Assembly: GCA_023410905.1 (NCBI GenBank)
Contig: JAEYPL010000031.1
Coordinates: forward strand, 31,137-95,136
Direction: 5' to 3'
Source of the DNA: Pseudomonadota bacterium
GTDB taxonomy: Bacteria > Pseudomonadota > Alphaproteobacteria > Rhizobiales > Hyphomicrobiaceae
DNA length: 64,000 nt
Part shown: positions 3,167-64,000 of the stretch, in pieces
Numbering within the stretch: position 1 is the first letter of the stretch
Layout: every line of letters begins with the position of its first letter
Translations under genes and position numbers: made by a program
Notes under the pieces: model-generated
What the model saw: only the letters and a program-made list of their open reading frames with translations
Told to the model about the DNA's origin: nothing
Databases searched by the model: none

Positions 3167-3332
3167 GCCGTAGAGGTGATTACGCATGGCAGCGTGGTCG
3201 AATTCTACAGCTGCCAAGCTGAGGTCAGACGGAACAGAAGTGATGCGAACGCTTGGTAATGATGCGAGTGACGGGCTGCATGTCGGCATTGCAGATCGGT
3301 CGGGAGGCGTCGACTTGGCGACGGCAGAGGAA

Positions 3333-35031: not shown

Positions 35032-35365
35032 TCTGGCACCTACGATGTTGCGATGCACCGGCTTGCAAAGTGCGTTTAGCCAGAGGCTCGTCTGCACAGG
35101 ATCTGTTTCCCCTCTAACGCGCCGCCCGAAGGTATGTTGCACGCTCAAATTCAGCATCACGATCGTCGGCCCGCTCCGCCTGCAGAGCGGTCGAGGAAGA
35201 GATCGTGCAAGCGGAGCGCTTCGCTATCGCGAGGTACCCATCCTTTTCTCGTGCGGATGGAGGCGGGGCAATAATCGAGCGACGGCGCTTTAAGCTCGGA
35301 ACCATCTGCGTTCGGTCGGATTAGCCATAGGAGTTGGTCTTTCTGCTTTGCCTTCGAGAGGAGTG

Positions 35366-38509: not shown

Positions 38510-39016
38510 CTATCGCGCCGTCGCGAATTCCTTGAGCACCAACGACAGTGCTTGGAAGAGCACGTCACCGCGAACGCGACCCGAGGCCTGTTCCTCGATC
38601 GTCAACCGGCGTACATGGGGTGCTCCGGCTCGCCATTGCACGGCGAGATAGGTAAGGCCGACCGGGTTGCCGTCATCGTCAGGCTTCGGGCCCCCGACGC
38701 AGGTGACCGCGACTGCGATATCTGCTGACGGGCATTTGTCGAGGGCTCCCCGGGCCATCGCAGCCGCTACTTCGGCGCTGACAGCTGAGTGCAATGTGAT
38801 GGCGTTTGCGGGGATGCCAAGCAGATCCACCTTGCACCACTTGGAATAAGTGACAAAGCCGCCGAGAAAGACGTCCCCAGCACCCGGGGTATCCGCCAGA
38901 AGTGTGGCCAGCGCGCCAGCGGTACAGGATTCGACCGTGATGATCTTGGCTCGGGCGACGCACGCCGCCTCGATAACGCGAGCTGAAAGATCCGTGATGG
39001 CCATATGGTGCGACAT
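38510..39016 (-). CDS. CinA C-terminal domain / PncC-like nicotinamide-nucleotide amidohydrolase
   Basis: Motif TVESCTAGALATLLADTPGAGDVFLGGFVTYS. Confidence 0.85.
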   Translation of the reverse strand: MSHHMAITDLSARVIEAACVARAKIITVESCTAGALATLLADTPGAGDVFLGGFVTYSKWCKVDLLGIPANAITLHSAVSAEVAAAMARGALDKCPSADIAVAVTCVGGPKPDDDGNPVGLTYLAVQWRAGAPHVRRLTIEEQASGRVRGDVLFQALSLVLKEFATAR

Positions 39017-39091: not shown

Positions 39092-39964
39092 CTACGCGCG
39101 CTCCCGATCAAGCGAGCCGGTTGGATTGGTTGGAACCGAGGGACTCGATTGAGCTGAGGACATCCGCCCCAGCACATGTGTGACCTCTGCCCCATAGAGC
39201 AGGATCTGAGCAGAGTAATAAATCCATACGAGCAGTACGACGAGGGATGCGGCGGCGCCATACGTCGACTCCAGGCCTTGCGTGCCGATGTACCCGGATA
39301 TTGCGGCTTTCCCGATATTGAACAGCATGGCCGTCGTGAGCCCGCCGATCCAGGCATCGCGCCAAGCGACATCGGCGTCAGGGAACGATTTGAACAGCAT
39401 GGCGAACAGGGCAGACAGAACGCCGAGGGAGACCGCGAAATTCAGCGCTTCCCAAAGAAGGCTTTCACCGGAGCCGATCGACGCCGAAAGACCCGACAAA
39501 GCTGTGTTGATGACCAGCGATACTGCCAGAAGGAAGCCCAATGCGAGTATGCCGGCGAAGGACACGACATAAGTACGTATGTAGGTCCAGATGCCAGCGT
39601 ACTCCAGCTCCTTCGTTTCCCAGATCGTATTGAGCGCATCCTTGAGCTGCGCGACGACGCCGAGGGCTGCGGCCAGCAATAGGATGATGCCCACCAAGGC
39701 GGCTATGGCGCCGCTGGCTGGTGAGCCGGCACCTTGCAGCATGGCCTCGACAGCCTGGCTGCCGGCGGGCCCAAGCAAATTGCGGAGCTGATCGTTGAGC
39801 GCGGTGGAGACGGCCTCGCGGCCGAAGAACATGCCGGCAATGCTCACGACAATGAGGAGCAAAGGCCCCAGAGAAAACACCGAGTAGTAAGCGAGCGCCG
39901 CCCCAAGCCGCGCATCACGGTGGCGCAGCCAATCGTTGCCTGCTTCTACGAACACATTCCACAT
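39092..39964 (-). CDS. YihY/BrkB-family inner membrane protein
   Basis: RLGAALAYYSVFSLGPLLLIV.. and multiple TM segments. I chose the ATG at 39964 because the ORF track GTG at 40039 lies inside the predicted promoter at 40022-40048. Confidence 0.8.
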   Translation of the reverse strand: MWNVFVEAGNDWLRHRDARLGAALAYYSVFSLGPLLLIVVSIAGMFFGREAVSTALNDQLRNLLGPAGSQAVEAMLQGAGSPASGAIAALVGIILLLAAALGVVAQLKDALNTIWETKELEYAGIWTYIRTYVVSFAGILALGFLLAVSLVINTALSGLSASIGSGESLLWEALNFAVSLGVLSALFAMLFKSFPDADVAWRDAWIGGLTTAMLFNIGKAAISGYIGTQGLESTYGAAASLVVLLVWIYYSAQILLYGAEVTHVLGRMSSAQSSPSVPTNPTGSLDRERA

Positions 39965-40021
39965 GGTCGATGCCAGATCAGTCTCATCGGAGGCTGGCGC
40001 GTCAGTGTCGCGATCGGATCG

Positions 40022-40048
40022 GGAACGGGATTGGCGCACATACGTTCC
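40022..40048. promoter_or_regulatory. Dyad-symmetric bidirectional sigma-EcfG-type promoter (GGAACG-N15-CGTTCC)
   Basis: Plus strand: GGAAC (40022-26), N16, CGTT (40043-46), 38 nt before ATG 40084. Minus strand: GGAAC (40048-44), N16, CGTT (40027-24), about 60 nt before ATG 39964. Both match the alphaproteobacterial general-stress consensus GGAAC-N16-17-CGTT perfectly. Confidence 0.6.
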
Positions 40049-40083
40049 CTGAAAAATTATCCAGCATGTCAGCGAGGTAGCCG

Positions 40084-40560
40084 ATGTTCGGGCGGCTCAT
40101 GAATTGGATCGGAGATGCGGCAGGCTCCATCGCGACAAAGTATGCGCTACGCGCATCAGTGGGCGTTCCGTTCGCCCTGGCCGCAGGTTTTGGAATTGCG
40201 GGGCTTACCGCTTATCTGATCGAGCTGTTCGGCAGCAGAGACGCCTATTTCTTGCTCGCGGCAGGATTTGCGGTTTGCGGTGTTCTGGCAGCGCTCATCG
40301 TGCGTTGGCGCGAGAATCAGGAAGAGCACGAAGGACAAGATGCGCCAGACGAGCGAGCCGCAAAGTCCATGGCCACCGCTGCAAAAGTCGCAGTCAGCGT
40401 GCCCGCGGCGTTGATGGCAGAGAGGTCAGATACCCGCGTTGCGAGCACGGGGTGGGCCGCGATCCTGAAAGGCTGGCCTTTCTATGCCTTGGCCTTCGGC
40501 CTCCTTTTGCTTGCTTCGCAGTCAAAGAGCGATGCGCGTGCCCGGACGCTTCGCTTCTGA
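40084..40560 (+). CDS. Hypothetical small membrane protein
   Basis: 158 aa with two to four hydrophobic helices (VPFALAAGFGIAGLTAYLIELF, YFLLAAGFAVCGVLAALIV, WPFYALAFGLLLLA). RBS GAGG 6 nt upstream. No family recognised. Confidence 0.6.
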   Translation: MFGRLMNWIGDAAGSIATKYALRASVGVPFALAAGFGIAGLTAYLIELFGSRDAYFLLAAGFAVCGVLAALIVRWRENQEEHEGQDAPDERAAKSMATAAKVAVSVPAALMAERSDTRVASTGWAAILKGWPFYALAFGLLLLASQSKSDARARTLRF

Positions 40561-40787
40561 TCGATTGGTGGCTGAGCAGTGATGGCAAACCCCAAAAATG
40601 GACTCGCGTTGGGATCACGGCAGCGGGCATCTAGCATCGGCTCCGTGCTGAAAAATGAGTGAGCTCGCGGAACAACCCGAGGCTGCATGCGGTTCCCTTC
40701 CAAGTACAGCGAGTGGGCAGAGCTGGAAATCTTCGGCGTGCTCCGACGATATCGCGGCCGGTGTGGGTCAACAGGAGGACACGAATA

Positions 40788-41576
40788 ATGGCGCAAATTG
40801 ATCGGCCGCTCGCCGTTGTCACGGGTGCCTCGACAGGCATTGGATATGAACTGGCGAAATGCTGCGCGCGCGAAGGCTTCGATCTCGTCGTGGCTGCCGA
40901 TGAGGCGCAGATCCACGCATCAGCGGAGGAATTCAAGGCGATCGGTGTTCGCTGCGAGGCTGTAGAAGCCGATCTGAGCACGCTTGAGGGAGTGGATAAG
41001 CTTTTAGAGGTGATTGGTAATCGACCGGTGGAAGCACTCCTGGCGAACGCCGGTCGCGGACTCGGCAAAGGTTTTCTCGATCAAGACTTCGACGACGTCA
41101 TCCATGTGGTCAATACCAACATCAGCGGGACGCTCTACCTGATACAGAGCGTCGGTCACGATATGCGCGAGCGTGGCAAAGGGCGTATTCTCATCGTCGG
41201 CTCGATTGCGGGGTTCATCCCCGGGACCTATCAAGCGGTCTACAACGCGAGCAAGGCGTTTCTCGATTCCTTCTCGTTCGCATTGCGGGCAGAGCTTGCC
41301 GACAGCGGCGTGACGGTCACATGCCTTATGCCGGGCGCCACGGAAACCGACTTCTTCGAACGGGCCGATATGCTCGATACCGAAGTAGGGCAGAGCAACA
41401 AGGACGATCCCGTTGACGTGGCGGCGACGGGTTTCCGCGCCATGATGAACGGAGATGGCGATGTGGTCAGCGGCTGGCACAACAAACTGCAATCGGCCAT
41501 TGCCAATGTAACGCCCGCCGCGCTGCTTGCCGAGGCGCATCGCCAGCAGGCCGCGCCTGGATCCGCCAAGCACTGA
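40788..41576 (+). CDS. Short-chain dehydrogenase/reductase (SDR)
   Basis: TGASTGIG cofactor motif, NAG and the YQAVYNASK catalytic motif. AGGAGG RBS before ATG 40788. Confidence 0.9.
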
Positions 41577-41586
41577 GGAGCGTCAT

Positions 41587-42756
41587 ATGAAAGCCCTGTG
41601 CTGGCACGGCAAGAACGATGTGCGTTGTGAGACCGTGCCCGATCCTAAGATCGAGCACCCACGCGACGCGATCATCAAGGTGACGGCCTGTGCCATATGC
41701 GGATCGGATCTCCACATCTACAATGGCATCATCCCGAATATGGAGAGCGGCGACATCATCGGCCATGAGACCATGGGCGAGGTGGTCGAGGTCGGGCGCG
41801 AGAACACCAAGCTCAAAGTTGGTGACCGCGTCGTCGTTCCGTTCACTATTGCTTGTGGCGAGTGCTTCTTCTGCCAACGCGGCTACCACTCCGCTTGCGA
41901 GCGCACTAATCCCGATCGTGACAAGGCTGCTGAGCTTTGGGGCAATTCACCAGGGGGCCTCTTTGGATACTCGCATCTGCTCGGCGGCTACTCCGGCGGT
42001 CAGGCAGAATATTTGCGTGTACCTTACGCCGACGTCGGCCCCATCAAAGTGCCCGCCAGCCTCAGTGACGATCAGGTCCTGTTTCTCTCGGACATCTTCC
42101 CCACCGGCTACATGGCGGCCGACTACTGCAATATCCAGGCGGGCGACACGATCGCTGTCTGGGGCTGCGGTCCCCTCGGGCAATTCGCCATTCGCAGTGC
42201 ATTTCTGCTCGGCGCGGAGCGCGTAATCGCGATCGACGCCGTGGCGGAACGACTTGCGCTTGCCGAGGCCGCAGGCGCCAAGACGCTGAACTTTCGCGAC
42301 CACGATATTTACGAGAACATCATGGAACTGACCAAGGGACGCGGCGCAGACGCTTGTATCGATGCTGTCGGTACGGAGGCGGACGCTACGGCAAGCCTCG
42401 ATTCCATGATCGATCGCGTGAAAGTGGCGACATATCTCGGTACCGATCGTCCGCATGTCCTGCGCCAAGCCATTCATTGCTGCCGAAATTTCGGTACCGT
42501 GTCCATCGTCGGCGTGTATGGCGGCTATCTCGACAAGATCCCAATGGGATCGGCAATCAATCGCGGCTTGACGTTTCGGATGGCGCAGACGCCTGTGCAA
42601 CACTATCTGCCGAGGCTGCTCGACCGCATCGAGAAGGGCGACATCGATCCTTCCTTTGTCGTGACCCACAGCGGAAAGCTCGACGAGGGGCCGGAGCTCT
42701 ACAAGACGTTCAATGCCCGCGCCGACGGATGTGTGAAAGTCGTATTGCGCCCTTGA
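41587..42756 (+). CDS. Zinc-dependent alcohol dehydrogenase family (glutathione-independent formaldehyde dehydrogenase-like)
   Basis: CAICGSDLH and [12 protein letters not shown] Zn-site motifs, the structural-Zn Cys cluster [15 protein letters not shown] and the GCGPLG Rossmann motif. Confidence 0.9.
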
Positions 42757-42900: not shown

Positions 42901-42925
42901 GGAACGGGTGGGCTCCCAGTTTGTT
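42901..42925 (+). promoter_or_regulatory. Near-consensus sigma-EcfG-type promoter (GGAAC-N16-TGTT)
   Basis: GGAAC 42901-05 and TGTT 42922-25, about 45 nt upstream of ATG 42970 of the PQQ-dependent dehydrogenase. There is one mismatch in the -10 element. Confidence 0.4.
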
Positions 42926-48280: not shown

Positions 48281-48547
48281 TCACTTATCTCCAAGTTCGA
48301 GCCATCCGGACCGGCTCTCGATGCTGTAGACACCATGGAAAGAAGCACCTCGGTCCCGTCCTGACGTCAGTCGCCCCAGCAACTTGAACGTGAAGCCGTC
48401 CGCTTCCTCATCCATACGCTGAATGTCCGCATCGAAGGCGTCGCCCTCGACGCGGAAATGCACGTCATTCACGCCGGAGTGGGCCAGAGACCGTTGAAGC
48501 GCGGGTTTGTCGGGTCCGTCGACAATGGATAATCTTCGCGGTGTCAT
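48281..48547 (-). CDS. Hypothetical 88-aa protein (first gene of a three-gene operon)
   Basis: Strong AGGAGG RBS 9 nt upstream of ATG 48547. It lies downstream of a perfect EcfG-type promoter. No family recognised. Confidence 0.55.
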   Translation of the reverse strand: MTPRRLSIVDGPDKPALQRSLAHSGVNDVHFRVEGDAFDADIQRMDEEADGFTFKLLGRLTSGRDRGASFHGVYSIESRSGWLELGDK

Positions 48548-48655: not shown

Positions 48656-48682
48656 GGAACGAATTGGTTGGTCATCTGTTCC
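48656..48682. promoter_or_regulatory. Dyad-type divergent sigma-EcfG-like promoter pair (GGAACG-N15-TGTTCC)
   Basis: Minus strand is a perfect match: GGAAC (48682-78), N16, CGTT (48661-58), driving 48547<-. Plus strand is a near match: GGAAC (48656-60), N16, TGTT (48677-80), driving the small ORF at 48748 and the membrane protein gene. Confidence 0.55.
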
Positions 48683-48747: not shown

Positions 48748-48822
48748 ATGGACGGAATAATTTACCTTGTCGGTCTGATTGTCGTCGTCATGGCGATCCT
48801 CTCCGTTCTTGGTCTGAGGTGA
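48748..48822 (+). CDS. Candidate 24-aa hydrophobic peptide
   Basis: MDGIIYLVGLIVVVMAILSVLGLR, with GAGGAG RBS 7 nt upstream. Its stop is 5 nt before the next ATG. It is too short for the ORF track. Confidence 0.35.
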   Translation: MDGIIYLVGLIVVVMAILSVLGLR

Positions 48823-50334: not shown

Positions 50335-50359
50335 AACCAAGACGATCAACGCAAGTTCC
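50335..50359 (-). promoter_or_regulatory. Near-consensus sigma-EcfG-type promoter (GGAAC-N17-GTTG)
   Basis: Minus strand reads GGAAC (50359-55), ttgcgttgatcgtcttg, GTTG, about 30 nt before ATG 50303. Confidence 0.4.
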
Positions 50360-51794: not shown

Positions 51795-52080
51795 ACAGGC
51801 GACGGCGGCCCGGAACAGGGCGCTGGGCAGTCGGCAGGGGGTTCTCTAACGCGCTTCCCGGGCCTTGGCAAGGCAGGGGAACCCGGCCACTCCATAATGC
51901 GCGGATCGCCTGGGAAAATGGGGCGGATCGCAGGTCCGCCGCGCGATCCGCACATGACGGACGAAGCGGCGCGCGTGGCCGCAATGCTCTATAAAGCAGA
52001 CCCCGCGGCCCCATCGGGCCGCCGAGCTTCCAAAGGGCACGCCAGAGCCCGGAAGCCCAGAGTGGTACGGAGCGCGTCCT

Positions 52081-54018
52081 GTGCCCACACCTGCTTCTCC
52101 AATACCCGACGAGGTTCAGCCCAGCACTTCCGAAGGCCCGGAGATTGCCGGTACCGAAGCTGGGCGGCTTGTCGCGCTGACGGTCATCGGCATCGGCGTC
52201 GTCTACGGCGACATCGGCACCAGCCCGCTCTATGCCTTCAAGGATGCCGTCGCGGCAGCGTCGGGCGGCGCTGGCGTCGCGCCGCGTCCCGAAGCAGTGT
52301 TCGGCATACTCTCGCTCATCCTGTGGGCGCTGATCATACTGGTCAGCATCAAGTATGTGCTGATCCTGCTGCGCGCGGACAACCACGGCGAAGGCGGCAT
52401 CCTCGCTCTCATGGCGCTCGTCCAGCGGGCATCATCTCGCAAGGCGCTGCCGGTACTCGTGCTCGGCGCGGTCGGTGCCGCGCTCTTCTACGGCGACGCG
52501 TTGATCACACCCGCCATCTCCGTGATGTCGGCCGTCGAGGGCGCGAAGCTCGCGATGCCGGTATCACAGGCCGGCGCACTGTTTGCGACGATGGTCATCC
52601 TCGTCGCGCTCTTTGCCGTGCAGAGCTATGGTACGCATCGCGTCGCCGGCGCTTTTGGGCCCGTGATGATCCTGTGGTTCCTGGTCATCGGCGGCGCCGG
52701 GCTCTACCAGATCGTGCTCAATCCGCAGGTCATTGCGGCCGTCAGTCCGCATCATGCCGTCGTCTTTCTAGCGAGCAATACCGCGATCGGTCTCGTGACG
52801 CTCGGTGCGGTGTTTCTCGCAGTAACCGGCGCGGAAGCGCTCTATGCCGATCTCGGCCATATCGGCCGCAGGCCGATCACCATTGCGTGGTTCTTCTTCG
52901 TGCTGCCGTCACTTGTGCTCAGCTACTTCGGGCAGGGTGCGGTCGTGCTGGCGGATGCTTCCGCGATCGACAATCCATTCTACCGGACGGTGCCGGAGGC
53001 CTATCTGCTGCCGATGGTCGGTCTCGCGACGCTCGCCACGATCATTGCCAGTCAGGCGACGATCACGGGCGCGTTCTCGCTGACGCGACAAGCCATTCAG
53101 CTTCGCCTGCTGCCGCGCATGAGCATCCAGCACACCTCGGGCGAGCACGCGGGGCAGATCTACGTGCCTGCCGTCAATTGGCTCATGATGGCCGGCGTTC
53201 TGACGATCGTGTGGAATTTCCAGACTTCGACGGAACTCGCGGCCGCATACGGCATTGCCGTAACCGGAACGATGATCGTCACGGCGATCCTCGCCAGTCT
53301 GATGATGGCCTGGCACTGGAAGTGGTCGCCGCTTCGCATAGCGCTCGTCATGGCGCCGTTTCTCGCCCTCGAAGTGGTGTTTCTCTCGGCGAATCTGCTG
53401 AAGGTCCTGGATGGCGGTTGGGTGACGCTGCTGATGGCCGCCTGCATGCTCACAGCCATGCTCGTGTGGTGGCGCGGATCGGGCATTCTGCTTGCCAAGA
53501 CGCGACGGAGTGAGCTGCCGATCGCCGATCTCATGCCGAGCCTCGAGCGGTCAAGCATGACGGTCGTCCCGGGAACTGGTGTGTATCTCACGGCCAACGC
53601 CAACAACACGCCGACCGCGCTCCTTCACACGATCAAGCATTTCAAGGTCACGCATGAGCAGATCGTTGTGCTGACGGTGATCACGTCCAATTGGCCGTAC
53701 CTCAGCATGGCGGAGAGCGTGTCGATGGAGCGGCTTTCCGAGCGGCTGGTCCGCGTGAGCGTGGTCACGGGCTTCATGCAGCAGCCGAATGTGCCGGCTG
53801 TTCTCGACTATTGCCGCGAGCAGGGATTGGCGGGCGACGCCGCGTCCACGTCCTACATGCTCTCGCGACGTGAAGTGAAGGCCGAGCACCCGTCCGCCAT
53901 GCCGATGCCGGCCACGGCGCTGTTCGTCGTGCTCGCGCACAACGCGGCCGATGCGACGGACTACTTCGGCATACCGAAGGATCGCGTGGTGGAGATCGGG
54001 ACGCAGGTTGGATTGTGA
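52081..54018 (+). CDS. kup: KUP/HAK/KT-family potassium transporter
   Basis: VVYGDIGTSPLYAF signature, about 12 TM segments and a C-terminal cytoplasmic domain. GTG start at 52081 (uncertain). Confidence 0.9.
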   Translation: MPTPASPIPDEVQPSTSEGPEIAGTEAGRLVALTVIGIGVVYGDIGTSPLYAFKDAVAAASGGAGVAPRPEAVFGILSLILWALIILVSIKYVLILLRADNHGEGGILALMALVQRASSRKALPVLVLGAVGAALFYGDALITPAISVMSAVEGAKLAMPVSQAGALFATMVILVALFAVQSYGTHRVAGAFGPVMILWFLVIGGAGLYQIVLNPQVIAAVSPHHAVVFLASNTAIGLVTLGAVFLAVTGAEALYADLGHIGRRPITIAWFFFVLPSLVLSYFGQGAVVLADASAIDNPFYRTVPEAYLLPMVGLATLATIIASQATITGAFSLTRQAIQLRLLPRMSIQHTSGEHAGQIYVPAVNWLMMAGVLTIVWNFQTSTELAAAYGIAVTGTMIVTAILASLMMAWHWKWSPLRIALVMAPFLALEVVFLSANLLKVLDGGWVTLLMAACMLTAMLVWWRGSGILLAKTRRSELPIADLMPSLERSSMTVVPGTGVYLTANANNTPTALLHTIKHFKVTHEQIVVLTVITSNWPYLSMAESVSMERLSERLVRVSVVTGFMQQPNVPAVLDYCREQGLAGDAASTSYMLSRREVKAEHPSAMPMPATALFVVLAHNAADATDYFGIPKDRVVEIGTQVGL

Positions 54019-54062
54019 GTGAAGTGCACGCCGTCGTTGGCATGCACGATCAAAACTGACGC

Positions 54063-54083
54063 GAGCGCGCCCTTCGCGCGCTC
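54063..54083. terminator. 8-bp GC hairpin between convergent kup and purA
   Basis: GAGCGCGC-ccttc-GCGCGCTC, overlapping the purA stop codon. No U-tract. Confidence 0.35.
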
Positions 54084-55392
54084 AGTCTTGAAATGGATCC
54101 CGCATCAGGATCGTGTCGTCTCGCTCGGGGCTCGTCGAGAGCAGCGTAACCGGGCACTCGATCAGCTCCTCGATATGGCGCACGTACTTGACGGCTTGGG
54201 CCGGAAGGTTGGCCCAGCTCCGCGCGCCTTGCGTCGATTCCGTCCAGCCCTCGAAGCTCTCGTAGATGGGCTTGACGCGCGCCTGCTCGTTCATGCCAGC
54301 GGGAAGGCGGTCGATACGCTTGCCGTCGAGCTCATAGGCCACACAGACCTTGATCTCGGGAAGCGCGTCGAGAATGTCGAGCTTGGTGAGCGCGATGCCT
54401 GTGATGCCGGCGACGCGTACGATCTGGCGCACGAGCACGGCATCGAACCAGCCGCAGCGCCGGCGCCGGCCGGTGTTGACGCCGAACTCCTTGCCGCGCT
54501 CGCCGAGAAGGCGGCCGATCTCGTCGGGCTCGCCATCGGGACCGAGAAGCTCGGTCGGGAAGGGGCCCGAGCCGACGCGCGTCGTGTAGGCCTTGGCGAG
54601 ACCGAGGACGTAGCTCAGTGCTGCCGGGCCCATGCCCGAACCTGCAGCCGCCTGCCCCGCGACCGTGTTGGACGAGGTGACGTAGGGATAGGTGCCGTGA
54701 TCGACGTCGAGCAGTGCGCCCTGCGCACCTTCGAAGAGAATGCGCTTGCCGGCCTTGCGGGCGCTATCGAGCGTATCCCAGACGGTGTCGATGTAAGGCA
54801 GGATCTTCGGCGAGATTTCCGTCAGCTCGTCGATGAGCGCCTGTTTGCTGATGAGCGGTTTGCCGAGCCCGCTTCTGAGCGCGTTGTGGTGGACGAGCAG
54901 CCGGTCGATCTTGGGGCCGAGATTGTGTAGGTTGCGCAGATCCTGCACGCGGATGGCGCGACGGCCGACCTTGTCCTCGTAGGCGGGGCCGATGCCGCGC
55001 CCCGTGGTGCCGATCTTCTGGGCGGCCGCAGCTTCCTCGCGGAGCTGATCCAGCTCGCGATGAAGCGGGAGAATGAGCGTTGCGTTCTCGGCGACCTTGA
55101 GCTGCTCGGGGCCAATGTCGATGCCGAGCTTGCGGATGCCTTCGATCTCGGAGACCAGATGCCAGGGATCGACGACGACGCCGTTGCCGATGACGGAGAG
55201 CTTGCCCGGACGGACGACACCTGACGGCAGCAGCGCGAGCTTGTAGGTCTTGCCCTCGATGACGAGCGTATGGCCGGCATTGTGGCCACCCTGGAAGCGC
55301 ACGACGATGTCGGCACGCTCCGAAAGCCAGTCCACGATCTTGCCTTTGCCCTCGTCGCCCCATTGGGCGCCGACAACCACCACGTTCGCCAT
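54082..55392 (-). CDS. purA: Adenylosuccinate synthase
   Basis: [21 protein letters not shown].., GGHNAGHT and [14 protein letters not shown] motifs. Confidence 0.95.
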
Positions 55393-55581
55393 TGTCTGAT
55401 GCCTCTTCTACGCAGCGCGTGGCTGCGGGAAGGCGTTAGCCCGTGGGAGGGCGCGGCGCAAGCCTTACTTGCCGCGGGCTGCTGGGAAGAGGTGTTTTGC
55501 AACCCTTCCGTCGTGCCATGCCGGCGGCGGTAAGCGGCGGCCTGCGCCGAGGTTTGCGCAAGCTTCCGCCCCTCATCCTAA

Positions 55582-55610
55582 CCTTCTCCCCGTATTGGAC
55601 GGGGAGAAGG
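55582..55610. repeat. REP-like 11-bp perfect-stem hairpin
   Basis: CCTTCTCCCCG-tattgga-CGGGGAGAAGG, in the 337-bp gap between the MoxR-operon end and the purA start. It resembles the 'ctccccg..cggggag' intergenic repeats common in Rhizobiales. Confidence 0.45.
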
Positions 55611-55729
55611 GACATGGTGGCGCCAGCCGTAAGCTCCGGGTCATAAAAAGGAGGGGGGTTCGGGGTCTCCCCGATTGGGGCCAGAGGCGAAAGCCCCGTC
55701 GCGCCGGAGGCGCGAGTTGGTCACCCGAA

Positions 55730-57862
55730 CTAGCGCCCCTCGCGCCACCACGCGAGGGTCAGGAAGGCCAGGAGGGCCGCCAGGGCCAGGAGGCCCGTGA
55801 ACATCGGCGTGATGCGGACGCCACGCGTGACGTACGCCTCGCGGTCCTTGAGGCCCATCCAGCCCGAGCCGGCCAGAACGCGCGCGTTGGCGAGGAGCGA
55901 CACGCGAGGCACGTCGACAGCGGTAGTGCTGGCGCTCGAAAGTAGGCCGCCACCGCGCGTCCAGAACGTGCCGCCGCCGGTGGCATTGATGAGCGGGCGG
56001 AGCTTGGCGTCGGTCGCGGTGACCTCGCTCATTTCGCGGGCATCCTCGAGCCCGGCATGGGCGACCGCGGTCAGCACCCGGCGATCGGGTGGCGGACCAT
56101 TCGACTGCATTTTGTAGAGCCCGGGCTGACGCACATCGATGGTCGTGCGCCAGACGCCGTCGCTTGCCGGTTCGAGTTGGACCTCACTCGACTCGCCGCC
56201 CGGCGACTGCACGGTGACCGGGGGGACGCTCGTCTCCATCGAGCGTCGCTCGATCGTCAGCTTGAGGCCGCGCGCATCGGCGAGAAGGCGCTCCTCCTCG
56301 AGATCGGGCTCTTTCATGAGCCAGTGCGACGTACGCCGCAGGAGGTCGGTGTGCGGTCCGCCGCCGTCATAGCCGCGCGCCCAGAGCCAGGCATGGTCGG
56401 AGAGCATGAGCGCGACGCGACCGCGTCCGACGCGATCGAGCACGAGAAGTGGGCGCTCCTCGACGCCGCTCATGAGCGTGCGCCCGCGCGTGACATTTGT
56501 CTCGACCTGCCGGAACCAGCGGCCCCAGTCGGGTTCCTGATTGCCCTCGCGGACGCCCGGCAGATTGCGCGTGACGGGGTGCTTGTGACCTTCGGTGGTG
56601 ATGCGCGCCTTGAAGGGCTGCTCGATGACGCGGCCCGATGGCGCGGCCGGCAGGACGGGCGCGAGCGCGGTGCGATAGAGGCTCGCGTTCTGCGCATAGT
56701 CGTCGCCCGAGGCCACGAGCAGAGCGCCGCCGTTGGCAACATAACGCGCGATGTTGTCGTAGTAGATCGGCGGGAGAATGCCGCGGACCTGATAGCGGTC
56801 GAAGATGATGAGATCGAAGTTCGAGATCTTCTCCGAGAAGAGCTCGCGCGTCGGGAAGGCGATCAGCGAGAGCTGATGGATGGGCGTGCCGTCCTGCTTC
56901 TCCGGCGGGCGCAGAATGGTGAAGTGCACGAGATCGACGGCGGCGTCGGACTTGAGAAGATTGCGCCACACGCGTTCGCCCGCGTGCGGCTCACCCGACA
57001 CGAGGAGCACGCGCAGGTTTTCGCGCACACCCTCGGCGGCGATCACGACGCGGTTGTTGAGGTGCGTGAGTTCGCCGGGCACGGTGTCGAGTTCGATCTC
57101 GACGATGTTCTGCCCTGCTGTCGGGAAGGGCATGGCAACGCGCGTGCGCGCGTCGATTTCCGTGCGGATGGTCTCGTCAGGCCGGCCTTCGCGGCGCACG
57201 CGCAGATTGACCTGACGTCCGGCCTGGCCGCTCTTGCCGGTCTCGCGTACGGCGACCTCGATGTCACGTGCGGGGCCATTGACGATGCCAAATTTCGGCG
57301 CCGTGATGACCTCGATGCGGCGGTCGAACTCGTCCGGGCGTCCAGTGATAAGCGCGTGCACCGGCGCGTTGAAGCCGAGGGCAGCAACGGACGCAGGAAT
57401 GTCGTGCACCTGCCCGTCGGTGATCATGATGACGCCGGCAAGGCGGTCGGGCGCGATTTCGGCGAGCGCGCGATTCAGATCCGTGAAGAGGTGCGTTCCG
57501 GACGTGCGTTCGCCGGTCGGACGCGAGGCTTCGATCCACTTCACTTCGAGGCCCGGAAGACGCTTCAGCTTTTCGTCGAGATCGGCGCGGATGGCGGCCG
57601 TCTGCGCGGGCCGGCCGGCAATGGATTGGCTCGTGCTCTCGTCGACCAGGACGACGGCAATATTGGCGAGGCCCTCGCGCTCTTCCTGCCGGAATGATGG
57701 ATTGGCGAGTGCAGCGACGAGCGCCGCAAGTGCGAGTGCGCGGAGTGCCGCGCCGCGCGTGCGCCGGAAGAAGAGGACGCCGATGAGCGCGAGCGCAACG
57801 AGCCCCGCAGCCACCAGCACGGGCAGCGGCACCATCGGGGCAATGTCGATCGACCAGGTCAT
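55730..57862 (-). CDS. Conserved membrane protein (last gene of the MoxR/Bat-like operon; GATase1-like fold suspected)
   Basis: N-terminal TM helices (PLPVLVAAGLVALALIGVLFF, ALALAALVAALANP), a large periplasmic/extracytoplasmic body and a C-terminal TM helix. Its position matches the fourth gene of the RL3499-RL3502-type operon. Confidence 0.8.
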   Translation of the reverse strand: MTWSIDIAPMVPLPVLVAAGLVALALIGVLFFRRTRGAALRALALAALVAALANPSFRQEEREGLANIAVVLVDESTSQSIAGRPAQTAAIRADLDEKLKRLPGLEVKWIEASRPTGERTSGTHLFTDLNRALAEIAPDRLAGVIMITDGQVHDIPASVAALGFNAPVHALITGRPDEFDRRIEVITAPKFGIVNGPARDIEVAVRETGKSGQAGRQVNLRVRREGRPDETIRTEIDARTRVAMPFPTAGQNIVEIELDTVPGELTHLNNRVVIAAEGVRENLRVLLVSGEPHAGERVWRNLLKSDAAVDLVHFTILRPPEKQDGTPIHQLSLIAFPTRELFSEKISNFDLIIFDRYQVRGILPPIYYDNIARYVANGGALLVASGDDYAQNASLYRTALAPVLPAAPSGRVIEQPFKARITTEGHKHPVTRNLPGVREGNQEPDWGRWFRQVETNVTRGRTLMSGVEERPLLVLDRVGRGRVALMLSDHAWLWARGYDGGGPHTDLLRRTSHWLMKEPDLEEERLLADARGLKLTIERRSMETSVPPVTVQSPGGESSEVQLEPASDGVWRTTIDVRQPGLYKMQSNGPPPDRRVLTAVAHAGLEDAREMSEVTATDAKLRPLINATGGGTFWTRGGGLLSSASTTAVDVPRVSLLANARVLAGSGWMGLKDREAYVTRGVRITPMFTGLLALAALLAFLTLAWWREGR

Positions 57863-57906
57863 GCGAACTCGAGAACTCCGTCGTTATTGCCCCGCGCGTC
57901 GCGCAC

Positions 57907-60810
57907 TCACTGACCGAGCCGCTCGATAAGCGCTGGGGCGTGCACCTGATCGGCCTTGTAGTTACCGGTCAGTGCGTACATGGCGATGTTGATGCCGACG
58001 CGAATGGCCATCTCGCGCTGTTGCTCGCCGCCGGGAACGACGGGGAACATCGGCCGGTTCTGGCTATCGAGGGCCCAGGCCGCAGCGAGATCGTTCGGCG
58101 TCACGAGAATGCTGCTGACGCCGTCGGCGCGGCGAGCTTTGCGCGTGTCGTCGTCGGCGGATTCGGCACTGTCGGCCTCGACCCACATCTGCCCGCCGTC
58201 CCAGCGACCGGGGAAGGTGCGCAGAATGTAGAAGGCCTTGGTGAGAACGTGCGTCTCGGGCACAGGCTCGAGGCGTGGAAGGTCGAGCCTGCCGAGCAGG
58301 CGCTGCAACGGTGTGCCGCTCTCGCGGCCCATACCGATGCCGGTCGGAATGCCCGAGCCGAAGTCGCGGGTGTCGAAGATGATCATCCCGCCCTGCTTCA
58401 TGTAGGTATCGATCTTCGCGAGCGTCGCGTCGTTCAGCGGGTTCGCGTTGGTGAGCACCGGCCAGTACAGGATCGGGAAGAAGGCGATCTCGTCCGTCGA
58501 GACATTGACGCCGAAGGGCTCGCCCGGCTCGACCGAGGTCCGCGCGGCCAGATGGCGGCCGATGCCGACAAGGCCCGCGCGGCTTGCCTCGTCGGTCGCG
58601 CCATCGCCGGTCAGGACGTACGCGAAGGAGACCTTGCCAGTTGCCTGGATGGCGATCTGCAGATCGCGGCTAGACGGCATGGCGGCGCTCGGTGGCGCCT
58701 CGGGGCGGCGCTGGGCCTCGGCATGATGGCTCGTAAGCACGAGAGCGGCTGCGGTCGCGAGCAGCAGTACGGACGCTGTCGCTGCAGGACGCATCCCGGG
58801 GCGGCGCCTCAGCAGGCCCTGCAGCAACAACACGGCGATGATATCCGCGAAGATCAGCGCGAGAGCCGCCGAGAGCAGCCAGGGCTTGAGCGGCTCGGGG
58901 TTCGTGCCCTCGTATGTGCGCTGCTCGACATTGGCGGGCAGTGTCGGCAGTGGCCGAAGCTCGGTGCGCGGCGTGATGACATTGAGCGCGCGCGGGCTCG
59001 CGGCCGGACCGTAGTAGCCGGGTGGATGATCGAGCGAGGGCGTGGCCGTATCGATACTGCGGGCGGGGATCGCCTGCGCGGTCGGTGTCGGCGGGCGCAA
59101 GGTGCCGAAGCCGTCGAGTACCTGCGTCGGTGCCAGCACCTCGGCGGTCTCGGGTGTTGGAGCGCTGCGTGCTGTCGGCGCGGCCATGGTCTCGGCGCCG
59201 CCGACGGCAACGCCGCCGCTGACGCCGAGCGTTGCAATGCGCCGCAGCATCTCGACGAACAGGCCCGAGAGCGGCAGGTTCGACCAGTCCGAGTTTGCCG
59301 TGATGTGGAAGAGCACGATCTGTCCTTCGCCCATGCGGCGGGCAGTAACGAGCGGCGTGCCGTCGGCGAGGCGCGCCCACACGCTCACGTCATCCGTGAG
59401 GTAAGCCGGATCCGCGAGGATCTGCCGGTTCACGGCGACATCCTTCGGGATCGTAAGGCCTGCGAACAGGCTCGAATCTTCGAAGGGTGCGAGCGGCTGC
59501 GGCGTCGACCAGGACAGCGCGCCGCCGAGTGTGCGACCACCCATGCGCAGGCCCACCGGCAGCAGATTATCGCCGCCCTTTTCGAGGCGCGGGCCGGCGA
59601 AGCGCACGAGCACGCCGCCTTTGTTCACCCATTCTTCGACGCGCGTGCCGAGATCGCCCGCAATGGTACCAATATCGGCCATCACGAGAACCGAAGAGCG
59701 CTGATCGAAGGCGCTGGTCACCGCGCCCGCGAGATTGACGTCCTTCTGGCGGACCAGTTCGGCGAATGGTGCGAGTGCGCGCTCGATGTAGTAGAGCGGG
59801 GCGAGCAGCGGCTGCGCCTGTTCGCGGCTCTCACCGGAAATGAGGGCGATGCGATGCCAGCGCGAGCGGCTGTCGAGCAGATGCACGGCGCCGGCACTGC
59901 GTTCACCGGCAAGCTCGACGCGCGCGACCTGATTGCGCAATTCGAGCGGCAGATCGAAACGTGCCGTCGCACGGCGGCTGCCGGCTGGGATTTCGTACGA
60001 GGTCTCGGCGAGGCGCTGCCCGCGCGCGGAGAAGGCAAGCGCACTGCCATTGCGGCCGGCACCCTCGGCGCGAACGACGAAGGCTTCGAGCCGCCCATCA
60101 CGATCGAGGCCGGCACTGAGGCCGAGTGGTTCATCACCGGGACGGTTGCGGACCACCTGAAGCTGACCGCCGGTCGCGAGTTGGCTCAAGGCAGTCGCAA
60201 ATGCGCTCGTCTTGCCGTCATGATCGATACCGTCGCTGAGCCACACGACGTCGAGGCCCGACTGCCCCGCAAGCGTGCGCGCGAGTTGCTCGACGAGTTC
60301 TGCGCGCTGGGGCGCGAAGGGTTGCGGCTGGAGGGCGGCAGCGGTCGTGCGTGCTGCGCCTGGAGCTTCGATACGCAACGTCGTTGTCTTCGCGCCGGAG
60401 GCCGTCGGCGCGACGACGACGGGGCGGTTGGCGCTCTCGGCTTCCGAGATGAGCTGATCGACGAGGCGGGCGCGCTGCGCGAAATGCCCGCCGCTCGACC
60501 ATCCGTTGTCGACGACGAGAACGAGCGGGCCACTGCCGGAGAGACCGGCTTCGCGGTTCGGATTGAGCACGGGATCGGCGAGCGCGAAGATCACGAATGC
60601 CGCGGCGAGCATGCGGATCAGCGTCAGCCACCACGGCGTCTTGGCTGGCGTCTTGTCCTTGTTCTCGAGCCCGACGAGGATGCGCGTCGGCGGGAAGTTG
60701 ATCTGGCGCGGGCGCGGCGGCACGGTACGCAGCAGCCAGTAGATCACCGGCAGCGCGGCGAGCGCGGTCAGCAGCCACGGGCTTAGAAAGGCCAGAGCGC
60801 CGATGCTCAT
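57907..60810 (-). CDS. BatA-N-terminal (double-TM) + DUF4159 domain membrane protein
   Basis: N-terminus AFLSPWLLTALAALPVIYWLLRTVPPRPRQINFPPTRIL (aerotolerance-regulator N-terminal type). The C-terminal DUF4159-like region includes FAYVLTGD..FFPILYWPV..YMKQGGMIIFDTRD. 4-nt overlap with the DUF58 gene. Confidence 0.85.
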   Translation of the reverse strand: MSIGALAFLSPWLLTALAALPVIYWLLRTVPPRPRQINFPPTRILVGLENKDKTPAKTPWWLTLIRMLAAAFVIFALADPVLNPNREAGLSGSGPLVLVVDNGWSSGGHFAQRARLVDQLISEAESANRPVVVAPTASGAKTTTLRIEAPGAARTTAAALQPQPFAPQRAELVEQLARTLAGQSGLDVVWLSDGIDHDGKTSAFATALSQLATGGQLQVVRNRPGDEPLGLSAGLDRDGRLEAFVVRAEGAGRNGSALAFSARGQRLAETSYEIPAGSRRATARFDLPLELRNQVARVELAGERSAGAVHLLDSRSRWHRIALISGESREQAQPLLAPLYYIERALAPFAELVRQKDVNLAGAVTSAFDQRSSVLVMADIGTIAGDLGTRVEEWVNKGGVLVRFAGPRLEKGGDNLLPVGLRMGGRTLGGALSWSTPQPLAPFEDSSLFAGLTIPKDVAVNRQILADPAYLTDDVSVWARLADGTPLVTARRMGEGQIVLFHITANSDWSNLPLSGLFVEMLRRIATLGVSGGVAVGGAETMAAPTARSAPTPETAEVLAPTQVLDGFGTLRPPTPTAQAIPARSIDTATPSLDHPPGYYGPAASPRALNVITPRTELRPLPTLPANVEQRTYEGTNPEPLKPWLLSAALALIFADIIAVLLLQGLLRRRPGMRPAATASVLLLATAAALVLTSHHAEAQRRPEAPPSAAMPSSRDLQIAIQATGKVSFAYVLTGDGATDEASRAGLVGIGRHLAARTSVEPGEPFGVNVSTDEIAFFPILYWPVLTNANPLNDATLAKIDTYMKQGGMIIFDTRDFGSGIPTGIGMGRESGTPLQRLLGRLDLPRLEPVPETHVLTKAFYILRTFPGRWDGGQMWVEADSAESADDDTRKARRADGVSSILVTPNDLAAAWALDSQNRPMFPVVPGGEQQREMAIRVGINIAMYALTGNYKADQVHAPALIERLGQ

Positions 60811-61748
60811 GCCTGCCCTCCTGCTGCCGCCGTGGGCGCGCTCATGCGATAGCTGCCCGCCTGGCCGCCGAGGCGCATGATGAGGCTCAGCAGCAATTCG
60901 TGCGGCGGTCGATCCGTGTGATGGACGAGCAACGACCAGCCGAGGCGGCGCGCGATCTCGGCGAGGCCGTCACGGTGTTCGGCGAGGCGCTTGATGTAGT
61001 CCTCCCGCATGGTTTCGACACGATCAACGATCCAGCGCTCGCCCGCAACCTCAGGGCCGAGGAATTCAGCGCGCCCCTCGTAAGGCAAAGTCTCCTCCGC
61101 CGGGTCCATGACCTGCACGAGATGTCCGCTGACGCCGGCACCCGCCAGCTCTTCGAGGCGCGGCCCGAGGGTGTCGAGCGGATCGAGAAAGTCGCTGATG
61201 AGAATGGCACCCGAAAAGCGCGGCAGGCGAATCTTGGGCGGCAGGCTCGTGGTGAGCAGAGGTGACTTGATGTTCGTGAGGACGGTTTCGGCGATGACCG
61301 TGGCGGCCTTCCGGCTTGCGGTCGGACGGCCGAGGCCAAGCAGTGCCACGCGCTCGCCGCCGCGCACGAGCAACTCGGCGGCAGCCAGCATGAGCACGAT
61401 CGCGCGGTCGCGCTTTGTGACGGTCGCTAGCTCGCTGTTGAAATCCATCGAGGGCGAGAGATCGGGCCAGAGCCAGACCGTATGCGCGGCTTCCCACTCG
61501 CGCTCGCGCACGTACAACTGATCGGAGCTTGCCGAGCGGCGCCAGTCGATGAGCGTTGCCGCATCGGCGCCCTCGAACTGGCGAAACTGCCAGAAGGTCT
61601 CGCCGGGGCCGGCGCGACGACGGCCATGAATGCCATGCGCGACCGTGCTCGCGACGCGGTTCGTCTCGATCACGAGGTCCGGCAGGCGATCGGCGAGGCC
61701 GTGCGCCTCGAGCTCGAGCCGGCCGACAGCAGCCCGGGCCGGACTCAT
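60807..61748 (-). CDS. DUF58 (vWA-like) protein
   Basis: GIHGRRRAGPGETFWQFRQFEGADAATLIDWRRSA..LYVREREWE is a typical DUF58 signature. Confidence 0.9.
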   Translation of the reverse strand: MSPARAAVGRLELEAHGLADRLPDLVIETNRVASTVAHGIHGRRRAGPGETFWQFRQFEGADAATLIDWRRSASSDQLYVREREWEAAHTVWLWPDLSPSMDFNSELATVTKRDRAIVLMLAAAELLVRGGERVALLGLGRPTASRKAATVIAETVLTNIKSPLLTTSLPPKIRLPRFSGAILISDFLDPLDTLGPRLEELAGAGVSGHLVQVMDPAEETLPYEGRAEFLGPEVAGERWIVDRVETMREDYIKRLAEHRDGLAEIARRLGWSLLVHHTDRPPHELLLSLIMRLGGQAGSYRMSAPTAAAGGQA

Positions 61749-61851
61749 GCCGACCTCCTCGGGAACAATCTCGGCCGGGGTCGCATGGCGTGTGCGGTCT
61801 CCGCCAACAACAGGCTCGAAGGAGATGGGTATGGGGCGTCTATGGTTCGCC

Positions 61852-62850
61852 TCACGCGATGTTGGCGGCCAGACGGCCGATGACGGCGCCGATCTGATGC
61901 CCCTCGGCGCGAGCCGCGAAATTCAGGGCCATGCGATGCTTGAGAACGGGCTCGGCGAGCGCGACCACGTCGTCGACCGAGGGCGCCAGCCGGCCATCGA
62001 CCAGCGCCTTGGCGCGAACGGCGAGCATGAGTGCCTGCGATGCGCGCGGGCCGGGGCCCCAGGCGACGAACTTGTCGGTCTCGCTGTCGGCGCCTGTTCC
62101 GGGACGAGCCGTGCGCACGAGCGTCAGGATCGCATCGACAACCTTGTCCGGCACGGGGATTTGGCGCACGAGACGCTGGATGCTCATGAGCTCGGGGCCG
62201 GAGAGGATCGCCTCGAGGCGGCGCTCTTCAGTGCCAGTCGTGGAGAACAGCATGCGCCGCTCGGCGGCCGTGTCGGGATAGTCGACATCCACCTGCAGCA
62301 GGAAGCGATCGAGCTGTGCTTCGGGAAGCGGATACGTGCCTTCCTGCTCGAGCGGGTTCTGCGTCGCAAGCACGTGGAAAGGCGAGGGCACATCATGGCG
62401 CTGACCGGCGACAGTGACGTGATGCTCCTGCATGGCCTGGAGCAGCGCCGACTGCGTCTTCGGCGATGCCCGGTTGATCTCGTCCGCCATGAGGAGCTGC
62501 GTGAAGACCGGTCCGCGAATGAAGCGGAAGCTGCGCCGTCCGCCTTGAGCGTCTTCGAGCACTTCGGCGCCGATGATGTCGGAGGGCATGAGGTCCGGCG
62601 TGAACTGGATGCGCTTGGCATCGAGGCCGAGCACACGCCCGAGCGTCTCGACGAGAAGCGTCTTCGCCAGACCGGGCACGCCAATCAGCAGCGCGTGGCC
62701 GCCGGAAAGGATCGTCACGAGCGTCTGCTCAATGACCTTGTCCTGGCCGAAGATGACGGAGGCCGTGGCCTCGTGGACGCGCCGCACCCGCTCACCAGCG
62801 GCCTCGACGCGCGCGACGATGTTGTCCTGGGTATCGATTACTGTTGTCAT
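61852..62850 (-). CDS. MoxR-family AAA+ ATPase
   Basis: Walker A GVPGLAKT, Walker B LLMADEINRASPKTQSALL and the AAA_3/MoxR pattern. Confidence 0.95.
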   Translation of the reverse strand: MTTVIDTQDNIVARVEAAGERVRRVHEATASVIFGQDKVIEQTLVTILSGGHALLIGVPGLAKTLLVETLGRVLGLDAKRIQFTPDLMPSDIIGAEVLEDAQGGRRSFRFIRGPVFTQLLMADEINRASPKTQSALLQAMQEHHVTVAGQRHDVPSPFHVLATQNPLEQEGTYPLPEAQLDRFLLQVDVDYPDTAAERRMLFSTTGTEERRLEAILSGPELMSIQRLVRQIPVPDKVVDAILTLVRTARPGTGADSETDKFVAWGPGPRASQALMLAVRAKALVDGRLAPSVDDVVALAEPVLKHRMALNFAARAEGHQIGAVIGRLAANIA

Positions 62851-62998
62851 GGCGCGATTATACTGCCGTTTTTCTGAGGTTGCGAAATTTTGAGGCAGCG
62901 AAGATGTTCAGATTATGGAGCGCAGTGCCGATCAATTGAGCAGTCGGTCCAAATGAAACGCTTGGCATCGATCGCAAGGCCGCCGCGAAAGGCGCGGG

Positions 62999-63023
62999 GG
63001 AACCGGCAATATGCCGGGCCGTT
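62999..63023 (+). promoter_or_regulatory. Perfect GGAAC-N16-CGTT sigma-EcfG-type promoter motif
   Basis: GGAAC 62999-63003, a 16-nt spacer cggcaatatgccgggc, and CGTT 63020-23, 52 nt before ATG 63075 (DUF1285). Confidence 0.5.
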
Positions 63024-63074
63024 GGGATCGTATGGTGCCAAACGCGAACTGCGTCACGCAAGCAAGGTCGCCTC

Positions 63075-63698
63075 ATGAGTCCACACGATATGCAGGGCAG
63101 TCGCCGGGAAACAAGTCAGGTTGACGCAGGGCCAGCGGGGTCCGGGTCCGCAGAAGCGGCGCCGCTCGCGGGGCTGGAGGCCATGCTGCGCGCCCAGGAC
63201 AAGGATCGCCTGCCCCCGGTCGACAGCTGGAATCCCCCTTATTGCGGGGATATTGGCATGGCCATCGCGGCGGACGGGACGTGGTTCTACCAGGGGAGCC
63301 CGATCGGCCGGAAACCATTGGTGCGACTCTTCTCCCGTGTCCTGCGGCGCGATCCGGACGGCCGTCACTTTCTCGTGACCCCCGTCGAGAAAGTGGATGT
63401 CGCGGTCGCCGATGCCCCCTTTCTGGCGGTCGAGATGGAAGTCTCGGGGGAGGGGTGCGCGCAGGAGCTCATCTTCCGCACGAATGTGGACGATGTCGTG
63501 CGCTGCGGACCCGAGCACCCCATGCGATTTGCGCCGGAGGCGGGGACCGGCGGACTGAAGCCCTATGTCCTCGTCCGCGGCCGGCTCGAGGCTTTGGTGA
63601 CGCGCGCGCTCTACTATGACCTCGTGGAGATGGCCCTCGAGGACGATGCGGGCCGTCTCGGCGTGTGGAGCGGTGGCGCGTTCTTTCCCCTGACGTGA
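63075..63698 (+). CDS. DUF1285 domain protein
   Basis: ..PPVDSWNPPYCGDIGMAIAADGTWFYQGSPIGRKPLVRLFSRVLRRD.. is the DUF1285 pattern. The start may be further downstream. Confidence 0.85.
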   Translation: MSPHDMQGSRRETSQVDAGPAGSGSAEAAPLAGLEAMLRAQDKDRLPPVDSWNPPYCGDIGMAIAADGTWFYQGSPIGRKPLVRLFSRVLRRDPDGRHFLVTPVEKVDVAVADAPFLAVEMEVSGEGCAQELIFRTNVDDVVRCGPEHPMRFAPEAGTGGLKPYVLVRGRLEALVTRALYYDLVEMALEDDAGRLGVWSGGAFFPLT

Positions 63699-63833
63699 TG
63701 CGACTACCGCGACAGATCGAATTTTAGGCAGCGCCGTTGCCGGGCATATTTCGCTCTATCGATGGCCGCCGCCGGCATGGCACAACAGGCGCGTGGCAAA
63801 CCTCTTCCCAGCAGCCGGCGGCAAGAAAAAGAC

Positions 63834-64000
63834 ATGAGCACGAACCTTTCCATCAATCCCGACCGTCTCTGGCAGTGTCTCATGGCCTCGGCGGAGATCG
63901 GGCGTACGCCAGCCGGCGGAATTCGCCGCCTTACGCTCAGCGACGAGGACAAGGCCGTGCGCGACATGTTCGCTGGCTGGGTACGCGCGGATGGCTATGG
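63834..64000 (+). CDS. M20-family amidase (hydantoinase/carbamoylase / allantoate amidohydrolase type), 3'-truncated by the window edge
   Basis: MSTNLSINPDRLWQCLMASAEIGRTPAGGIRRLTLSDEDKAVRDMFAGWVRADGYG is a typical N-terminus of this family. Confidence 0.8.
   Translation, partial: MSTNLSINPDRLWQCLMASAEIGRTPAGGIRRLTLSDEDKAVRDMFAGWVRADGY

Follow-up and report, generated by a model that had tools for sequence, protein, structure and literature searches.

The published target of EcfG-type extracytoplasmic function (ECF) σ factors is the bipartite motif GGAAC-N16-CGTT (PMC7083833). The 80 mapped RpoE2 promoters of Sinorhizobium meliloti carry matching boxes, and transcription usually starts 7–9 nt past the –10 hexamer (PMC3616915 Table S19). 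The known EcfG promoters are one-way: of the 80 mapped in S. meliloti, not one coincides with a promoter on the opposite strand, and three carry GTTCC. Here, we describe an element of 27 bp located at positions 40022–40048 of a 64-kb stretch of metagenomic DNA (hereafter referred to as the window, i.e., the whole stretch analyzed). In boxes, spacing and the kinds of genes downstream (cinA, catalase, short-chain dehydrogenase, small membrane proteins), this element resembles the EcfG, RpoE2 and SigT promoters (GGAAC-N16-17-CGTT). Unlike these, it shows the full consensus on both strands of one 27-bp stretch. We propose that this palindrome is probably a single EcfG-type (ECF15) core promoter, which could be used by RNA polymerase in either orientation.

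Two divergent stress operons under the control of one σ factor are likewise found where phyR lies back-to-back with nepR-ecfG. In S. meliloti (rsiB1/rsiA1-rpoE2), however, separate promoters are used, whose –35 ends are 5 bp apart and whose start sites are 72 bp apart, the tightest mapped pair of this organism. The divergent promoters of SMb21446/7 and SMb20073/4 in the same organism lie 21 and 31 bp apart, respectively, whereas a single element is present here. Bidirectional promoters dependent on σ70 (bioRxiv 10.1101/2020.01.31.928960; PMC12825309) are similar in their opposite-strand symmetry, their two orientations and their mutual exclusion. In these promoters, it is the two –10 elements that overlap, start sites are spaced 7–29 bp apart (mode 18), and a separate –35 element serves each direction. 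In our element, by contrast, –35 and –10 swap, the predicted starts are ∼38–42 bp apart, the whole promoter is shared and the motif is of the ECF type. Neither ECF nor alternative σ factors are mentioned in the two papers on σ70 bidirectional promoters (bioRxiv 10.1101/2020.01.31.928960; PMC12825309). Our searches of the literature on EcfG or ECF bidirectional promoters, phyR/nepR overlap and GGAAC/GTTCC found no description of the shared-element layout, as had been suspected in a first-pass annotation of the window, which knew of no such overlapping architecture for EcfG promoters.

The element reads GGAACGggattggcgcacataCGTTCC, i.e., GGAACG-N15-CGTTCC, and one extra base per side extends its arms to 7 bp (gGGAACG...CGTTCCc, 40021–40049). 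Because GGAACG and CGTTCC are reverse complements of each other, each arm represents a –35 region on one strand and a –10 region on the other. GGAAC-N16-CGTT accordingly matches both strands, at 40022 (+) and 40024 (–), each time with the spacing of an EcfG (ECF15) promoter, and the dyad is perfect, so that the core elements coincide on opposite strands through symmetry. The plus-strand –10 CGTT is preceded by a conserved TA and lies within the hexamer ACGTTC (40042–40047). In the whole window, GGAAC-N16-CGTT occurs four times compared with 0.49 expected occurrences, and none of 100 shuffled sequences reached four, while the version of this pattern with a 17-nt gap has no match in the window. 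The full palindrome is present once in the window (0.00 expected from shuffles) and GGAAC-N17-GTTCC twice (0.03 expected). These data confirm the perfect dyad with GGAAC-N16-CGTT on both strands that the first-pass annotation had reported, and its assignment of the motif to the EcfG/RpoE2 consensus agrees with both the published target (PMC7083833) and the 80 mapped S. meliloti promoters.

Arms of 7 bp would be capable of pairing, as expected if the palindrome had arisen by chance or served as an RNA hairpin or terminator. With 0.00 such palindromes in the shuffles, we consider this explanation extremely improbable. Three related candidates were examined at the element and rejected: a structured RNA or hairpin, as the fold is no better than that of shuffles (z = –0.74), a terminator, as no terminator-like site was found, and a known RNA family, as there was no Rfam match.

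To follow the element through related organisms, homologues of the neighboring membrane protein were collected and their contigs read, with alignment columns anchored on the element. Among genome contigs, a single-sequence query retrieved no relatives of this protein and an alignment query retrieved three. The resulting data set comprises nine lineages, the window and the loci L083, L084, L088, L086, L093, L098, L090 and L002, with membrane proteins 46–82% identical to that of the window. All 10 columns of the arms GGAAC and GTTCC are invariant across these lineages, compared with none of 60 columns in the flanks, where the mean pairwise identity of 0.33 shows that the sequence is saturated. 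Covariation was not seen because the arms are invariant. Only the inner bases vary: position 6 is a G in seven of the nine lineages and a T in two, which changes the reverse –10 region to AGTT, and position 22 is a C in eight and a T in one, which changes the forward –10 region to TGTT. Both variants are known from the –10 boxes of the general stress response (GSR) regulon of Sphingopyxis granuli, which include AGTT, TGTT and GGTT, and promoters with TGTT, GGTT and CATT were transcribed in vitro (PMC7083833).

The plus-strand promoter requires GGAAC and (C)GTT, but neither the CC after GTT nor the G at position 6. In the known regulons, CC follows the –10 GTT in 5 of 53 S. granuli promoters (∼9%) and 3 of 80 S. 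meliloti promoters (∼4%) (PMC7083833, PMC3616915), which in both cases is at chance level or below. The nine lineages correspond to about six independent groups; with an expected CC frequency of ∼0.09, the probability of retention by chance is ∼1e-5. A G at position 6, which supplies the C of the reverse –10 region, is also rare in the known regulons (14 of 73 promoters in S. granuli and 4 of 80 in S. meliloti; PMC7083833, PMC3616915), yet predominates here. This pattern of conservation indicates that both arms are under purifying selection, including the CC that would be needed by the reverse promoter alone. Alternatively, the element could be a one-way EcfG promoter of the membrane-protein gene with an incidental reverse match, its partner genes being transcribed from elsewhere, e.g., from the neighboring coding region. 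About 9% of EcfG promoters would indeed have CC after GTT by chance. But a CC that is invariant in nine lineages despite saturated flanks, together with a mostly conserved G at a position where this base is disfavored in known regulons, makes a one-way promoter rather unlikely.

The gene arrangement around the dyad also argues against a one-way promoter. While the membrane-protein gene is constant on one side, three arrangements occur on the opposite side: yihY (window, L093, L098), a 100-aa gene followed by yihY (L083, L084, L088), and an operon of a short-chain dehydrogenase (SDR) and an alcohol dehydrogenase (ADH) (L086, L090, L002). In eight of the nine lineages, the dyad nevertheless holds its position, ending 35–41 nt before the start codon of the membrane-protein gene and ∼30–58 nt from that of the partner. 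In these eight lineages, only 92–119 bp separate the divergent start codons, and the dyad is roughly central. A gap of this size would be too small for two separate ECF promoters plus their untranslated leaders, and no σ70-like promoter or hexamer pair was found between 39850 and 40200. If the geometry of the S. meliloti RpoE2 promoters is applied, two transcriptional start sites are predicted, one for each direction (Table 1).

The additional gene between the dyad and yihY in L083, L084 and L088, which is absent from the window, encodes a lysine/glycine-rich protein of 99–101 aa (MPRGDKSKYTGK...; MPRGDKSKYTGKQERQADHIAEGYKKRG...) with no Pfam or NCBIfam match. It may be akin to the “plasmid stabilization protein” of S. 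granuli, a guess from the name only.

Table 1. Coordinates of the dyad, its predicted promoter elements, the adjacent genes and further dyads. Positions refer to the window unless a related locus is named; UTR, untranslated region.
Feature	Position	Strand	Remarks
Shared core promoter (predicted), 27-bp dyad GGAACG-N15-CGTTCC	40022–40048	both	strand matches, shuffles, nine-lineage conservation
Plus promoter –35, GGAAC	40022–40026	+	overlaps minus –10; invariant in 9/9 lineages
Plus promoter –10, CGTT	40043–40046	+	CGTT in 8/9 lineages; TGTT in L098
Minus promoter –35, GGAAC (plus strand: GTTCC)	40044–40048	–	invariant in 9/9 lineages
Minus promoter –10, CGTT	40024–40027	–	CGTT in 7/9 lineages; AGTT in L090 and L002
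Predicted start, membrane-protein transcript	40054–40056	+	S. meliloti RpoE2 geometry; 5′ UTR ∼28–30 nt
Predicted start, yihY-cinA transcript	40014–40016	–	S. meliloti RpoE2 geometry; 5′ UTR ∼50–52 nt
yihY, BrkB/YihY family inner-membrane protein (PF03631, TIGR00765)	39092–39964	–	first gene on the minus side
cinA/PncC-domain gene (PF02464)	38510–39016	–	downstream of yihY
158-aa membrane protein, faint DUF6949 match	40084–40560	+	constant gene on one side of the dyad
Short-chain dehydrogenase (SDR)	40788–41576	+	with ADH, divergent partner of the dyad in other lineages
Zinc alcohol dehydrogenase (ADH)	41587–42756	+	follows SDR
Second EcfG-like dyad, GGAACA-N16-GGTTCC	40669–40696	+	17-nt spacing; between co-directional membrane-protein and SDR genes
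Near-palindrome, GGAACG-N15-TGTTCC	48656–48682	CGTT on –, TGTT on +	between divergent 88-aa gene and 24-aa open reading frame
Dyad, GGAACG-N15-TGTTCC	L011 6433–6459		between divergent alcohol dehydrogenase and manganese catalase genes
Perfect dyad, GGAACG-N16-CGTTCC	L102 1641–1668		between divergent 71-aa gene and UPF0114 gene

The gene coordinates bear out that the element lies between the divergent yihY-cinA genes on the minus strand and the small membrane-protein gene on the plus strand; the cinA/PncC-domain gene is probably part of the same transcript as yihY. A public call on an identical contig starts YihY at GTG 40039, which falls within the spacer of the promoter, and the resulting protein of 315 aa runs through the promoter. 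The relatives of YihY, called at 279–290 aa, start at residues matching ATG 39964 (MWNV.../MGSV...), which supports the shorter start (290 aa) that had already been favored by the first-pass annotation. Based on this comparison, the 315-aa call is an over-extension into the promoter, and the case illustrates for annotation that gene callers stretch yihY into the promoter.

On the plus side, the membrane-protein gene is followed by the SDR and zinc ADH genes, a gene for a pyrroloquinoline quinone (PQQ)-dependent sugar dehydrogenase and pqqA-E. Farther out, the window contains a large KatE-type catalase, a PNPOx-like gene of the “general stress protein 26” type and a receiver-HWE histidine kinase. 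In S. granuli, the GSR regulon includes cinA (681-fold GSR-dependent), two catalases, the short-chain dehydrogenase yhxC and the “plasmid stabilization protein” mentioned above (PMC7083833 Table S2). Genes typical of known EcfG regulons are therefore found downstream of such sites in our loci (cinA, catalase, SDR), with KatE, PNPOx-like and PQQ dehydrogenase genes nearby, and the partner genes being of the general-stress type is a further point against a one-way promoter. Within the window and its relatives, GGAAC-N16/17-NGTT sites precede genes for DUF892, manganese catalase, PNPOx-like, metallothionein-like, PQQ sugar dehydrogenase and DUF1285 proteins, the DUF892 genes occurring in the related loci.

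The window belongs to a 106-kb metagenomic contig. For its adenylosuccinate synthetase (PurA), the 80 best hits all come from Alphaproteobacteria, mostly Hyphomicrobiales, at ≤74% identity, which identifies the host as an uncultured alphaproteobacterium. Alphaproteobacteria are described as the sole class having EcfG (PMC3892343). The host and the similarity of the flanking genes to the S. granuli regulon (cinA, catalases, short-chain dehydrogenase) both fit the general-stress context that had been assigned to the promoter at first reading. Another explanation would be a bidirectional promoter recognized by some other ECF σ factor whose specificity for GGAAC/CGTT is similar. A –35 region with AAC and a CGT-type –10 region are common to many ECF groups (PMC8103513), and the gene for the σ factor lies outside the window. 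We nevertheless regard a σ factor other than EcfG as quite improbable, given that the exact consensus and its spacing fit EcfG, as do the abundance of sites and the genes of the regulon (cinA, catalases, DUF892, SDR, small membrane proteins).

Individual EcfG-like sites of the window are located at 62999–63023 (+) before the DUF1285 gene, at 42901–42925 (+) before the PQQ sugar dehydrogenase gene, at 50335–50359 (–) before the PNPOx-like gene and at 35116–35140 (–) before the KatE catalase gene. The start of the latter may have been called too far upstream, because the EcfG-like site lies within the 5′ end of the open reading frame as it was called. A gene for a large hybrid kinase (HAMP-GAF-HisKA-HATPase and three receiver domains), followed by that of the receiver-HWE histidine kinase, occupies positions 29–4460, and HWE kinases also adjoin stress genes in the related loci L086, L099 and L102. 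We take these kinases to be candidate general-stress signaling kinases. The G+C content increases from ∼0.60 to 0.65–0.68 at ∼52000–64000, where a conserved housekeeping block starts (kup, purA, a BatA-like/DUF58/MoxR cluster and DUF1285). Judged from this step, the stress-gene region of the window may be accessory DNA.

Dyads of this type are not restricted to the locus described so far. In 188 kb of DNA from the clade, GGAAC-Nk-GTTCC is found ten times at k = 17, seven times at k = 18 and 0–3 times at every other k of 5–40, compared with one match at k = 17/18 in 563 kb of unrelated bacterial loci. This peak mostly reflects the abundance of EcfG sites. After orthologues were collapsed, eight distinct dyads remained, four of which lie between divergent genes: the 40022 element itself, the near-palindrome at 48656–48682 of the window, L011 6433 and L102 1641. 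At the second of these sites, the 88-aa gene (48281–48547, –) precedes genes of the metallothionein-like and PCC/DUF296 types, and the 24-aa open reading frame on the other side (48748–48822, +) encodes a hydrophobic peptide. This dyad is not conserved; the homologues of the 88-aa gene have a different proximal promoter.

A perfectly symmetric sequence with inverted half-sites, as provided by the 6–7-bp arms, could also be the operator of a dimeric transcription factor binding GGAAC...GTTCC half-sites two helical turns apart, either instead of the promoter or atop it. The clade-wide peak at k = 17 and 18 and the co-directional setting of part of the dyads would be compatible with an operator. 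However, the favored spacings are exactly those of EcfG promoters, and the non-palindromic GGAAC-N16/17-NGTT sites, which precede like genes, are several times more numerous. Moreover, the inner bases of the conserved dyad change only to known –10 variants (TGTT, AGTT), and no regulator gene is common to the loci. We therefore consider an operator improbable. To our knowledge, there is no dimeric regulator with a binding motif of the GGAAC...GTTCC type. The LexA box of Alphaproteobacteria is a direct repeat, GAAC-N7-GAAC; this repeat is absent from the element, and a LexA site was rejected.

The dyad at 40669–40696 has copies of the form GGAACA-N16-(G/T)GTTCC in L083 (10590–10617) and L088 (2217–2244). 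From its sequence and position, it is probably an internal promoter for the SDR and ADH genes, and its reverse reading would yield antisense RNA. In L084, a non-dyad site, GGAACG-N15-CGTTCG, is present in its place, i.e., the CC is lost. Another control comes from the 88-aa gene family, whose orthologous one-way promoter has GC, GG, CT and GG after GTT in four lineages. As the control sites vary after GTT, the CC is retained where it could serve a divergent gene, and otherwise not.

Several observations weigh against a shared bidirectional promoter. By a hand count, 6 of the ∼43 intergenic EcfG-like sites of the clade are dyads compared with ∼4 expected, which is not significant. Two dyads, at 40669 in the window and at L001 5362, lie between co-directional genes, so that the reverse promoter has no gene to serve, as would also be expected for one-way promoters with incidental symmetry. 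None of the genes ecfG, nepR and phyR was found within the 64-kb window, and yihY of the window shows no clear ribosome-binding site. The sequencing runs searched for the window yielded one DNA metagenome, with a 12% share. In contigs assembled from RNA runs (soil, sludge) that belong to a 95%-identical relative of L090, the dyad is covered at a depth of 3–6, which is flat over the whole 8.4-kb locus and comes without strand or read-end information. These contigs may represent DNA carry-over or read-through and are uninformative on start sites; if they derive from real RNA, they would indicate extra transcription or read-through across the site, and contigs crossing the dyad in a relative are in agreement with a one-way promoter as well.

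Since there is no clear genome-wide excess of dyads, the special status of the 40022 element rests on its conservation and placement. Taken together, the conserved arms, the changing partners, the short gaps and the rarity of CC in the known regulons provide good support for a shared bidirectional EcfG-type promoter. The motif on both strands, its conservation and placement, the stress-type neighbors and the alphaproteobacterial host are observed, whereas we infer which σ factor is used, where transcription starts on either side, that both directions fire and that they compete.

Based on this reading, we propose the following mechanism. The two arms would act as –35 region (GGAAC) on one strand and as –10 region (CGTT) on the other, with a 16-nt spacing both ways. 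Polymerase docked in one orientation would initiate at ∼40054–40056 and read the membrane-protein gene, perhaps running on into the SDR and ADH genes, while polymerase docked in the other orientation would initiate at ∼40014–40016 and transcribe yihY-cinA. Both operons would thereby be tied to a single stress input, the release of EcfG upon titration of NepR by phosphorylated PhyR. Because both orientations use identical DNA, the site would accommodate no more than one holoenzyme at any moment. How initiation is divided between the two directions would presumably depend on the asymmetric spacer, in which a conserved TA precedes one CGTT and C/G the other, and on the base that opens each –10 region. 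The mutually exclusive firing proposed in the first-pass annotation is sound as a matter of geometry and may carry regulatory weight. In σ70 bidirectional promoters, competition appears at high promoter activity only (PMC12825309).

The phyR1 promoter of S. granuli TFA, GGAAACCAAATTAGGGCTAAATCGTTCCC (GGAAACC...CGTTCCC; PMC7083833, Table S2), reads GGAAC-N16-GGTT on its opposite strand, facing the divergent nepR1 gene. By its sequence, it may represent an unrecognized second case of this layout, in a cultured and tractable strain; the authors are silent on it.

As a more general and tentative hypothesis, which we consider possible but somewhat short of probable, ECF σ factors can evolve a 27–28-bp “swap” promoter for two divergent operons when the core of their –35 region (..AAC) is reverse-complementary to that of their –10 region (GTT..). 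The clade described here would have kept such a hub while its stress genes were reshuffled, and the layout would recur at 48656 in the window, L011 6433 and L102 1641. Exclusive orientations would then provide control over the ratio of the two transcripts and lead to anticorrelated noise.

A 27-mer that serves two genes from one orthogonal σ factor could be a useful part for synthetic biology. If both directions fire, the element would be the most compact two-operon control element possible for an ECF σ factor, with all promoter DNA shared. It would then offer a natural system for studying how a holoenzyme chooses its orientation and how competition couples two stress operons, and divergent transcription caused by promoter symmetry would extend from σ70 to the ECF σ factors, in a new geometry.
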